From Curvularia clavata (Eukaryota): a stretch of 64,000 nucleotides of DNA. The translations under genes and the position numbers were made by a program. The stretch is from contig CP089279.1 in assembly GCA_023920165.1 (NCBI GenBank), forward strand, positions 1,612,001 to 1,676,000, given 5' to 3'. How positions within the stretch are numbered: position 1 is the stretch's first letter; every line of letters begins with the position of its first letter. The notes under the pieces are model-generated. The model was not told the origin of the DNA, did not search any database, and saw only the letters and a list, made by a program, of their open reading frames with translations. This document shows positions 19,100 through 19,385 of the stretch, piece after piece.

Positions 19100-19385
19100 T
19101 TACCTCGCATATGCCCTTTGAGTATATATTTTTCAAGAATTTGTATTCTTCCATCAAGCGCCAATACACGATGTAGCCTGATTGGGTGGGCCTCTTGGCA
19201 AAAATACCAGTAGCTGGTATAGGTTCACGTCGAGCAATCGACTCACTGAGAAATCAGTCAGGAACATGGGCTGCAAGTCAGGGGTGCGCTTGCCTAACCG
19301 ACGACGACGAACCTTGGTTCGATCCGGGGGCATGGTGTAGGGCAGCGAGGGCATATCGGAGTAAAACTGCTTAATATTTTTTTTT
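19100..19385 (+). ncRNA. Candidate structured non-coding RNA (~280 nt), family not recognised
   Basis: Nested complementary helices including two GNRA hairpins and a CUUG hairpin, 5'/3' closing stem, upstream TATA (19013-19020), internal B-box-like GGTTCGATCC (19316-19325) and T9 run (19377-19385). See findings. Confidence 0.5.

Follow-up and report, generated by a model that had tools for sequence, protein, structure and literature searches.

A probable class III gene for an uncatalogued, structured small RNA in Curvularia clavata

The window analysed here is a whole stretch of 64,000 nucleotides of Curvularia clavata contig CP089279.1 (positions 1,612,001 to 1,676,000 of the forward strand). 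Searched with Rfam at gathering score, the entire window gave one hit, a tRNA at 13194-13297. This tRNA-Lys gene, with its 5' flank at 13298-13360 on the minus strand, is the sole tRNA gene of the window. A sequence-only reading had proposed a stand-alone, highly structured RNA of ~280 nt, made by Pol III or Pol II, at 19100-19385. A scripted check found all stems of that proposal in place, every pair in them being either standard or G-U. Also present are both GNRA loops, GCAA at 19234-19237 and GAAA at 19250-19253, and a CUUG loop. The features of the region are as follows.

19098-19157, plus strand: upstream promoter region of tRNA-gene type, from alignment to the tRNA-Lys 5' flank; not part of the RNA in the preferred model.
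19109-19148, plus strand: 5' arm of the closing stem (19109-19117) and first hairpin (19120-19148) of the ~280-nt proposal, inside the tRNA-flank-like stretch.
19156-19381, plus strand: predicted primary transcript of ~226 nt, from the promoter alignment, the lack of an internal T4 and a contig of sequencing run X3 that lies inside it at 19175-19350.
19169-19179, plus strand: 5' strand of an alternative closing helix, pairing with 19349-19358 in the minimum free energy (MFE) fold of 19156-19381.
19174-19185, plus strand: A-box-like TAGCCTGATTGG, aligned with the tRNA-Lys A-box/D-arm, at about +18 from the predicted start.
19190-19234, plus strand: most conserved core (GCC-TCTT-GGC, an A-run, ATACCAG-TAG-CTGGTAT and AGGTTCAC), matched by a contig of run X2.
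19204-19220, plus strand: hairpin ATACCAG-TAG-CTGGTAT of 7 bp, pairing probability 0.97, within the conserved core.
19229-19242, plus strand: hairpin GTCGA-GCAA-TCGAC with a GNRA loop, rebuilt in X2 and present in the MFE fold of the 226-nt model.
19245-19258, plus strand: hairpin ACTGA-GAAA-TCAGT with a GNRA loop, replaced in X2 by TTGAA-GCAA-TTCAA.
19308-19321, plus strand: hairpin CGAAC-CTTG-GTTCG, whose 3' half overlaps the B-box-like element; GAAC/GTTC is kept in X3.
19316-19325, plus strand: B-box-like GGTTCGATCC, matching GGTTCGANNC.
19377-19398, plus strand: terminator-like runs T9 (19377-19385), CCC and T10 (19389-19398).

The upstream part of the region resembles the tRNA-Lys gene. 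Local alignment of 19098-19160 to the tRNA-Lys 5' flank scored 29, the maximum among 18,200 other 63-nt windows on both strands being 28, and a MAFFT alignment of the two genes is collinear through to the A-box/D-arm. The exact 10-mer CTTCCATCAA occurs at two sites only within the window, 13300-13309 on the minus strand and 19148-19157 on the plus strand, and a TATA-like AT block lies at 19122-19133. Genes with tRNA-type (type 2) promoters are expected to share their upstream flank with the genome's own tRNA genes, and the flank found here is of this kind by comparison with one tRNA gene, the only one within 64 kb.

Internal promoter elements were compared with the consensus sequences TRGCNNAGTGG for the A box and GGTTCGANNCC for the B box. 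The A-box-like stretch at 19174-19185, already singled out in the sequence-only reading, aligns with the tRNA-Lys A box but has, in our reading, one surplus base before the A relative to the consensus; 19176-19191 can form a D-arm-like hairpin, GCCT/GGGC. This stretch is not kept in a diverged contig of run X2, which is unlike the window before 19190. The B-box-like decamer fits GGTTCGANNC, for which a search of both strands of the 64 kb gave two sites, one inside the tRNA-Lys gene and the other here, at plus-strand position 19316, but it fails the 11-nt form GGTTCGANNCC at the last base (10/11 positions), and this longer form matches the tRNA-Lys gene only. The relative found in run X3 retains GTTCGATCC at this element. 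The A- and B-like elements are ~140 nt apart. Downstream, the T9 run that had been pointed out at 19377 does span 19377-19385; among the five runs of at least T9 on the plus strand of the window, two lie at 19377-19398. No run of T4 or longer occurs between 19156 and 19376, so the body ends in a T-run terminator and contains no internal T-run, as in type 2 class III genes.

The tRNA-flank-like stretch at 19098-19160, the B-box-like decamer at 19316 and the lack of a T4 before T9 lead us to propose a class III gene that runs from ~19156 to T9 (~226 nt). The start would be at an A of CATCAAG (19153-19157) and the end within T9. Its transcription by Pol III, its exact ends and the pairing of these ends into a panhandle are predicted parts of the model. 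Of the two polymerases first considered, Pol III is therefore the one favoured, by the tRNA-type upstream region, the B-box-like element and the T4-free body ending at T9. The extent of ~280 nt closed by ATATGCCCT/AGGGCATAT was not retained: the 5' arm of this closing stem and the first hairpin lie inside the promoter-like stretch, where T5 occupies 19129-19133. An RNA of ~226 nt, closed in another way, is the most likely product.

Folding energies gave moderate and uneven support. On the plus strand, 19100-19385 has an MFE of -94.1 and a z-score of -2.91 (1 of 200 shuffles equally good), against -82.0 and -2.50 on the minus strand, and five out of 850 windows, each 270 nt long and taken from the 64 kb, had a GC-corrected energy below that of the plus-strand candidate. 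This signal comes mostly from the closing stem and the first hairpin. Once the sequence is trimmed to 19152-19381 the z-score is only -1.28, and the 226-nt model is no more stable than shuffles. The exact nested fold first drawn has an energy of -72.8, versus an MFE of -90.9 for 19105-19360. In the ensemble, the closing stem and the first hairpin each have a high pairing probability of 0.95, and ATACCAG/CTGGTAT has one of 0.97; the values are low for CAAGCGC/GCGCTTG (0.01), TGTAGCCTG/TGGGCTGCA (0.17) and the lower 3' hairpin (0.04-0.10). Comparative support is restricted to four hairpins (19204-19220, 19229-19242, 19245-19258 and 19308-19321), and the MFE fold of 19156-19381 includes all four unforced, plus an interrupted panhandle of 18 bp. 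In this fold 19169-19179/19349-19358 and 19156-19160/19368-19372 join the RNA's own two ends. The alternative closure has a pairing probability of 0.52-0.58, and the MFE is unchanged when the four supported hairpins are forced; the change A19355G found in X2 preserves the pair as U-G. The plus strand was assigned from the energy (-94.1 versus about -80 to -82 on the minus strand) and from the two loops, which are both GNRA on the plus strand. In our reading, A19275G and A19355G in relatives may point the same way, turning U-A into U-G pairs on the plus strand only. An 11-nt GAAA-receptor look-alike, CCTAAC/CATGG, is not kept in X3 and was set aside.

Conservation was assessed in public sequencing runs. 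Contigs of four out of four runs (X1 to X4) compared with 18800-19700 cover 19060-19398 only, and no contig in any of the four covers the flanks (18800-19059 and 19399-19700); we take this solely as over-representation of the element. The library of run X3 is RNA, metatranscriptomic and depleted of rRNA; it contains a contig of 170 nt that aligns with 19175-19350 and differs by 9 substitutions and 8 gap letters, every listed difference lying within 19275-19316. A diverged relative of the element is thus present in one small RNA library, at depth 2, and the contigs show neither ends nor strand; its presence there suggests a stable RNA. Around 19308-19321, the difference table reads as GAAC/GTTC kept, the loop changed and 8 letters deleted 5' of the hairpin. 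Run X2 contains two different versions of the element. The second is a 282-nt contig whose match is confined to 19190-19234, where 2 of 45 positions differ. Beyond this match it bears no likeness to the window on either side, although it retains ATCAAGC 30 nt upstream. After 19234, it carries a longer stem (7 bp, one G-U) around the same GCAA loop in place of 19229-19242, followed by TTGAA-GCAA-TTCAA in place of 19245-19258, where the new stem still pairs and the loop is still GNRA. The element is therefore kept beyond the species, as the X2 and X3 contigs show, and two of its hairpins have been rebuilt with different stems.

Searches for further copies were negative within their scope. An exact 32-mer had no match among metagenome contigs and a 20-mer had none among prokaryote genome contigs; 26 metagenome loci of a degenerate 18-base pattern were attributed to chance, the best forming only 6 of 7 stem pairs and none having matching flanks. 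Four core strings were absent from the full text of the literature searched, and two open frames, used as protein queries to reveal ORFs wrongly called across this RNA in relatives, returned no candidates. The 64-kb window holds no second copy, and flanking direct repeats or target-site duplications were not found beyond chance.

The element could not be assigned to a known family. Rfam 15 (4227 models, cmscan) gave no match at gathering score, in line with the original proposal, nor any convincing one at E up to 10: on 18900-19500 and 19095-19370 it returned SNORD42 on the minus strand (22.2 bits, gathering score 39) and mir-9460 (15, gathering score 85). The SNORD42-like match was rejected, proper C and D boxes being absent. 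Rfam presumably contains models for Afu_182 and Afu_309; no family beyond SNORD42 and mir-9460 was listed. Pfam found no protein family in the four overlapping ORFs. ARAGORN, allowing introns up to 300 nt, detected the tRNA-Lys control but no long-intron tRNA gene here, whether at its default threshold or at 90%. At 80% it drew a cloverleaf at 19167-19338 with an insert at 33/34, where a tRNA intron would be expected at 37/38; since the window yields 166 hits at this threshold and ten shuffles yield 164-201, the cloverleaf is at noise level. A tRNA-like T-arm, CTTGG-TTCGAT-CCGGG, is broken in X3 and was rejected as an RNA structure, as was a telomerase template based on CCTAACC (19293-19299), a telomere C-strand 7-mer of which X3 deletes two letters.

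A longer RNA of ~270-340 nt, closed by ATATGCCCT/AGGGCATAT, including the AU-rich first hairpin and of Pol II snRNA-like type, seems rather unlikely to us. It would start at ~19100, or at ~19045, about 30 nt past the canonical TATAAAAA at 19013-19020, which could drive a start near 19045 and is followed by CT-rich direct repeats at 19033-19089. CT-rich tracts precede transcription starts in filamentous fungi. The closing stem and first hairpin, with probabilities of 0.95, bring the bulk of the excess stability (z-score of -2.91 versus -1.28 without them), and A19355G of X2 also leaves the ATATGCCCT/AGGGCATAT stem paired, as U-G. The contigs of X1 (19070-19235) and X4 (19060-19280) extend ~90 nt upstream of the proposed start. 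If these runs are RNA, a longer transcript exists, but both may be DNA, the X1 library being only guessed to be RNA and the X4 type being unstated, RNA or DNA. A longer RNA gives no account of 19098-19160 as the window's best tRNA-flank match, a search for an Sm site pattern found none, and both the T5 run (19129-19133, upstream of our predicted start) and TTTGTTTG at 19092-19099 oppose Pol III from there; the T5 would tend to stop a polymerase arriving from further upstream. Inverted repeats like its 14-nt arm (86% complementarity) are not rare either, this being one among 5 inverted pairs in 491 nt. The 19109-19117 arm and the 19120-19148 hairpin are genuine complementarity, yet probably promoter DNA rather than RNA. 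Unlikely, too, is a functionless decayed tRNA copy or SINE-like tRNA-derived repeat with an insert of 90-120 nt, transcribed through its surviving promoter. Such a relic would explain why the upstream flank, D-arm-like hairpin and B-box are all tRNA-gene-like, and why 19167-19173 pairs with 19331-19337 at 6 of 7 positions, like an acceptor stem; the two versions in X2 and contigs confined to the element would also suit a multi-copy sequence. However, the insert rather than the tRNA-like frame is the best-conserved part, both GNRA hairpins are rebuilt and not decayed, and the T-stem is broken in X3 while the overlapping hairpin is kept. The cloverleaf is at noise level, there are just one or two records per run, no second copy occurs in 64 kb, no target-site duplication exceeds chance, and a retroposed SINE would not bring the 5' flank of a tRNA gene with it.

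A very divergent SRP, RNase P or RNase MRP RNA missed by the Rfam models would fit the size, the Pol III features, the paired ends and the occurrence in a small library depleted of rRNA. We consider this improbable: searches of 276-601 nt with E values as high as 10 gave no match to any SRP, P or MRP model. The loops of two adjacent hairpins agree with GNAR, having A in their third and fourth positions, like those of SRP helices 6 and 8 (PMC4605306), and basidiomycete SRP RNAs evaded all models until purified (PMC4605306). The same paper describes helix 8 as canonical in Ascomycota, which counts against this explanation; in its account, the GNAR loop of helix 8 stands beside a symmetric loop that contains the invariant A-C pair with a G next to it, and an asymmetric loop is present too (PMC4605306). 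Here, the only loops of GNAR type sit on two stems of 5 uninterrupted Watson-Crick pairs (19229-19242 and 19245-19258) joined by 2 nt, with no adjoining symmetric loop or A-C pair, and AGCA is found only inside the first GNRA loop. A UGUNR motif is placed in a loop of a 5' Alu-domain hairpin of SRP RNA (PMC4605306); TGTAG at 19172-19176, ~17 nt from the predicted start, could sit in a loop of CCAAT/ATTGG (19161-19165/19181-19185), but is paired in the preferred folds. The outline of the fold first drawn resembles domain 1 of RNase P/MRP: a helix closes the whole, hairpins stand at the 5' and 3' sides, and between them a long-range helix encloses a domain of several hairpins with GNRA loops. 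Two of these elements probably sit in the promoter, and the hairpins come in the order long, short, short, opposite to that of P8, P9, P10-12; a P/MRP-like order on the minus strand was rejected, the GNRA loops and G-U pairs being lost there. In nuclear RNase P, CR-I and CR-V form P4 with a bulged U; in RNase MRP, CR-I is a GAAAGUCCCC-type P4 strand and P8 bears a GARAR loop. CR-I and CR-V patterns had no match in 19040-19400, and the P4-like helix CAAGCGC/GCGCTTG has no bulge and a probability of 0.01-0.02. For MRP, GAAAGTCCCC (CR-I) was absent from the region searched, and GAGAA at 19248 straddles the stem and loop of the GAAA hairpin, where the diverged copy has GCAA. The hallmarks of SRP helix 8, RNase P and MRP that the sequence-only reading failed to match are absent here too. 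Finally, we give very little credence to the view that no RNA of note is made and that the complementarities arose by chance or act at the DNA level. The 226-nt fold is indeed no better than shuffles and 5 of 850 windows exceed the stability of the long version; against this, the stretch is conserved in other organisms with its flanks uncovered, its hairpins are rebuilt with GNRA loops retained, a relative's copy is in an RNA library, and promoter, B-box and terminator follow in order on one strand.

These comparisons support a stand-alone non-coding RNA gene on the plus strand, as originally proposed. The 19156-19381 region is probably a real, uncatalogued Pol III gene, and we hold it to be somewhat better than an even bet that it is a single-copy class III gene for a structured RNA of ~226 nt outside every catalogued family. 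In the proposed gene, an AT-rich block resembling a TATA element (19122-19133) would act upstream with the start-site motif CTTCCATCAA (19148-19157), which the neighbouring tRNA-Lys gene shares, together with an internal promoter formed by the A-box-like stretch ~18 nt and the B-box-like element ~160 nt into the RNA. Transcription would begin at ~19156 and terminate in T9 (19377-19385). The predicted RNA would contain the near-invariant 45-nt core (19190-19234) with its 7-bp hairpin, two short GNRA hairpins and, after them, a fourth hairpin; its two ends could pair into a panhandle. It may serve as a ribonucleoprotein scaffold, with the invariant core as a candidate binding site and the GNRA loops as possible tertiary or protein contacts.

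Several known RNAs offer partial parallels. Yeast SCR1 (7SL/SRP RNA) is reportedly a class III gene in which tRNA-type promoter blocks have been adapted to a non-tRNA RNA. The candidate is like SCR1 in its upstream TATA-like element, its internal A- and B-block-like elements in a structured non-tRNA RNA and its T-run terminator, but it lacks the symmetric loop of helix 8 and an SRP model match, and its A/B elements are ~140 nt apart. Vault and Y RNAs are animal Pol III panhandle RNAs of ~70-140 nt with paired ends and an oligo-U 3' end, found in vault or Ro particles; vault RNA genes have internal A and B boxes around a variable centre. As a small Pol III RNA with paired 5' and 3' ends and an oligo-U end, all predicted, the candidate resembles them; unlike them, it measures ~226 nt and is best conserved in its centre, and none of the Rfam models for Y or vault RNAs matches it. 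It shares a tRNA-gene-like promoter and 5' part with tRNA-derived Pol III RNAs or SINE source genes such as rodent BC1 and AfuSINE2 of Aspergillus fumigatus (PMC5063351). It differs from these in being single copy in 64 kb, with no target-site duplication and with a tRNA-type 5' flank, in the distance between its A/B elements and in having hairpins under compensatory conservation. Unclassified intergenic RNAs of A. fumigatus, Afu-202 (266-270 nt), Afu-182 (~300 nt) and Afu-309 (~320 nt), are described as abundant by Jochl et al. 2008 (PMC2377427). Like them, as they are described there, the candidate is intergenic, of the 220-350 nt class, conserved in sequence and predicted structure among relatives and without an assigned class. 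Compared through the qPCR primer pairs of afu-202, afu-182 and afu-309 only (PMC13015456), it gave collinear scores of 5-9, equalled or exceeded by 12 to 57 of 60 shuffles. The gene afu-182 lies next to insA (PMC13439689); Pfam gave no family, so no INSIG domain, on the tested flanking ORFs.

Since its promoter and 5' part look like those of a tRNA gene, the element may have its origin in a duplicated tRNA gene. Tentatively, and with the odds against it, we suggest that the element could be the founding member of an undescribed Pleosporales family of abundant Pol III RNAs with this origin and at least two diverged paralogues per genome, in which the core and the twin GNRA hairpins form the heart of a new RNP. 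A divergent known RNA or a tRNA-derived relic would make this an ordinary case. The region also carries a lesson: fold energy drew the first reading to a closing stem that is probably in the promoter, and the flank of a neighbouring tRNA gene was the more informative comparator. To our knowledge, hardly any Pol III transcripts of filamentous fungi have been described beyond tRNA, 5S, U6, SRP and RNase P/MRP RNAs, and we know of no counterparts of vault, Y or BC1 RNAs described for them. If the gene is real, a conserved, structured orphan class III RNA in a plant-associated genus of Pleosporales would be a candidate for a new RNP, and a non-tRNA gene would possess a tRNA-type promoter, flank included. 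If it does found a family, that family would be a fungal counterpart in kind of the vault, Y or BC1 RNAs.

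The candidate locus at 19100-19385 holds a real non-coding RNA gene that is conserved and strand-specific. The surrounding stretch is poor in genes and has the following features:

13193-13298, minus strand: tRNA-Lys(CUU) gene, interrupted by a 31-nt intron and scored at 54.8 bits by Rfam; the window has no other tRNA gene
16711-17400, plus strand: metallophosphoesterase-like ORF, upstream of the candidate RNA
19013-19020: TATAAAAA, followed by two CT-rich direct repeats
19033-19053 and 19069-19089: the CT-rich direct repeats, CGCCGCTCTCTCACCTCCACA and its 76% copy
From 20139, minus strand: unassigned ORFs, beyond the candidate RNA

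All ORFs crossing the candidate RNA are short, and Pfam assigned none of them to a family. Further along the window, an ORF at 39316-40536 (plus strand) encodes an Hsp70-family protein (Hsp12A-like, actin-like ATPase) with 100% identity to a Curvularia clavata protein over the aligned part; its next matches are in other Pleosporales. This assigns the window to C. clavata or a very close relative (Dothideomycetes, Pezizomycotina).

The tRNA-Lys gene is followed 4 nt downstream by a T8 run, and in its 5' flank TTTATATTTT occupies roughly -37 to -28, with CTTCCATCAA nearer the gene at -12 to -3. The exact 10-mer CTTCCATCAA has two sites in the window, 3 nt before tRNA-Lys and at 19148-19157, and a weak BLAST line joins 19117-19157 to the same flank. 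In a MAFFT alignment the candidate and tRNA-Lys regions are collinear from about -60 to the A-box/D-arm, and the collinear part includes a TATATTTT block as well as the 10-mer. With this one tRNA flank as the sole comparator, a 63-nt stretch of the candidate scored 29; the maximum among 18,200 other windows of this length, taken from both strands, was 28. Across the window, GGTTCGANNC is present only in tRNA-Lys and at 19316-19325, and an 11-nt B-box consensus is matched in tRNA-Lys alone. A T5 run is located at 19129-19133; no run of four T's occurs in 19156-19376, which is followed by T9 and T10. Taken together, the tRNA-like flank, the B-box-like GGTTCGANNC and the pattern of T runs point to a class III gene whose promoter is of the tRNA type, most likely starting near 19156 and terminating in T9 (about 226 nt). 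The sequence-only reading had proposed a stand-alone ncRNA of ~280 nt transcribed by Pol III or Pol II. The tRNA-type promoter favors the Pol III half of that proposal, and the extent is reduced to about 226 nt. Under the 226-nt model, the 5' arm of the proposed closing stem (19109-19117) and the first hairpin (19120-19148) are probably in the promoter and not in the RNA; the earlier 5' boundary and closing stem are probably wrong.

A longer transcript, including a possible Pol II start, could exist instead. Contigs from two of four public sequencing runs compared with the locus (X1 and X4) begin some 90 nt before the proposed start and would imply a longer transcript if these two libraries are RNA. 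TATAAAAA at 19013 and the CT-rich repeats at 19033-19089 could serve a Pol II start; 19013-19089 may represent an independent promoter of the Pol II type, or may belong to the control region of the candidate itself. The A-box fit is also loose, the A-box-like stretch is not kept in a diverged contig of run X2, and the expression evidence consists of one low-depth contig of a relative. The tRNA likeness might also denote a tRNA or a SINE. ARAGORN without introns found no tRNA genes in the whole window; with introns (-i) it detected the tRNA-Lys control and left the candidate unmatched at the default and 90% thresholds. At 80% it drew a cloverleaf at 19167-19338 with a 90-nt insert, which carries no weight because this setting gave 166 matches in the window and 164-201 in ten shuffles. 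The T-stem is broken in the X3 relative, and the conserved part is the insert, not the tRNA-like frame. No second copy of the candidate was found in the window, and no target-site duplication above chance at the locus. In our reading, the tRNA likeness reflects the promoter and the ancestry of the gene rather than its function.

Comparative data came solely from Logan contigs of the four runs, compared with 18800-19700; contig cover was confined to 19060-19398 in all four. No homologous locus was found in metagenome contigs, prokaryote genome contigs, paper texts or protein calls over the locus. The X1 (19070-19235) and X4 (19060-19280) contigs are identical to the window, and an X2 contig (19203-19398) is a 98% copy with 4 differences. 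From X3, a true rRNA-depleted metatranscriptome, came a 170-nt contig that spans 19175-19350 and differs from the window by 9 substitutions and 8 gap letters. In the difference table, the five substitutions with a stated position fall at 19275-19316 and every gap at 19295-19312; conservation is therefore concentrated in the 5' two-thirds of this contig. Its CUUG hairpin keeps GAAC/GTTC and changes the loop. In the second, diverged X2 contig (282 nt), only 19190-19234 matches the window, and there are 2 differences within the match. Past this point the contig has both short hairpins in rebuilt form, as a 7-bp stem with GCAA and then TTGAA-GCAA-TTCAA, and ATCAAGC lies 30 letters upstream, as in the window at 19153-19159. 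This contig is either a paralogue within one genome or derived from a second fungus in the sample. As judged from these sequences, rebuilt stems with kept GNRA loops indicate RNA-level selection on the plus strand. A19275G and A19355G yield U-G pairs on the plus strand only. A separate 95-nt contig (X4 record 6) agrees with the AT-rich promoter hairpin 19119-19153 (minus strand) at 30 of 35 letters and then diverges; it may come from the upstream region of another Pol III gene, or the match may be AT-rich chance alone.

A script check of coordinates found every stem listed by the sequence-only reading, with standard or G-U pairs throughout, as well as its two GNRA loops, CUUG loop and T9. That reading was right on the kind of object and on most local hairpins, four of which have support from the comparative data. 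The plus strand of 19100-19385 folds at -94.1 kcal/mol (z -2.91, 1 of 200 shuffles equally good) and the minus strand at -82.0 kcal/mol (z -2.50). The nested fold is not the optimum (-72.8 versus -90.9). Ensemble support of 0.95-0.97 was obtained for three elements only: ATACCAG/CTGGTAT, the first hairpin and the proposed closing stem. CAAGCGC/GCGCTTG has a pairing probability of 0.01. GC-corrected energy was below that of the plus strand in only 5 of 850 windows of 270 nt, and the minus strand was unremarkable (181-322 of 850 lower). After GC correction, the most stable 270-nt windows overall, 9550-9970 (z -3.3) and 29200-29470 (z -2.5), are both on the minus strand and very GC-rich (0.64-0.69); the former is just upstream of a bromodomain ORF at 10091-12655.

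The 226-nt RNA folds at -73.2 (z -1.28), no better than shuffles, and its MFE includes, unforced, all four comparatively supported hairpins. This fold pairs the two ends of the RNA (19156-19160/19368-19372, 19165-19167/19361-19363, 19169-19174/19353-19358 and 19176-19179/19349-19352; probability 0.5-0.6), which offers the 3' arm AGGGCATAT of the proposed closing stem an alternative partner within the RNA; A19355G fits either pairing. A competing acceptor-like pairing of 19160-19174 with 19330-19343 has a probability of 0.29.

No Rfam family covers the candidate: at gathering score the window's only Rfam 15 match is the tRNA elsewhere, and a search of the candidate region with E up to 10 gave nothing meaningful. 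SRP RNA requires a helix 8 in which the GNAR loop adjoins a symmetric loop containing an A-C pair (PMC4605306); in the candidate, each GNRA loop sits on a perfect 5-bp stem, with 2 nt between the two stems. RNase P and MRP conserved regions, searched as sequence patterns, were not found, and no U is bulged from the P4-like helix. The hairpins of the candidate follow one another in the opposite order to P8, P9, P10-12 of RNase P/MRP RNA.

The candidate is absent from every catalogue searched, and no description of it was found in the literature searched. As outlined by Li and Breaker, their 15 fungal motifs include none named for a stand-alone RNA of comparable size (PMC5640933). Jochl et al. 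2008 describe Afu-182, Afu-202 and Afu-309 of Aspergillus, intergenic RNAs of 220-350 nt that are conserved and structured and belong to no class (PMC2377427). The published qPCR primers for these three RNAs (PMC13015456) resemble the candidate no more than shuffles. Current work on afu-182 treats it as a dispensable lncRNA adjoining insA (PMC13439689); Pfam finds no family, and so no INSIG domain, on the flanking ORFs tested here. Most likely, Pol III transcribes the candidate from a promoter of the tRNA type, as an RNA of about 226 nt. Tentatively, this RNA might act as an RNP scaffold, with the 45-nt core (19190-19234) as a putative binding site.
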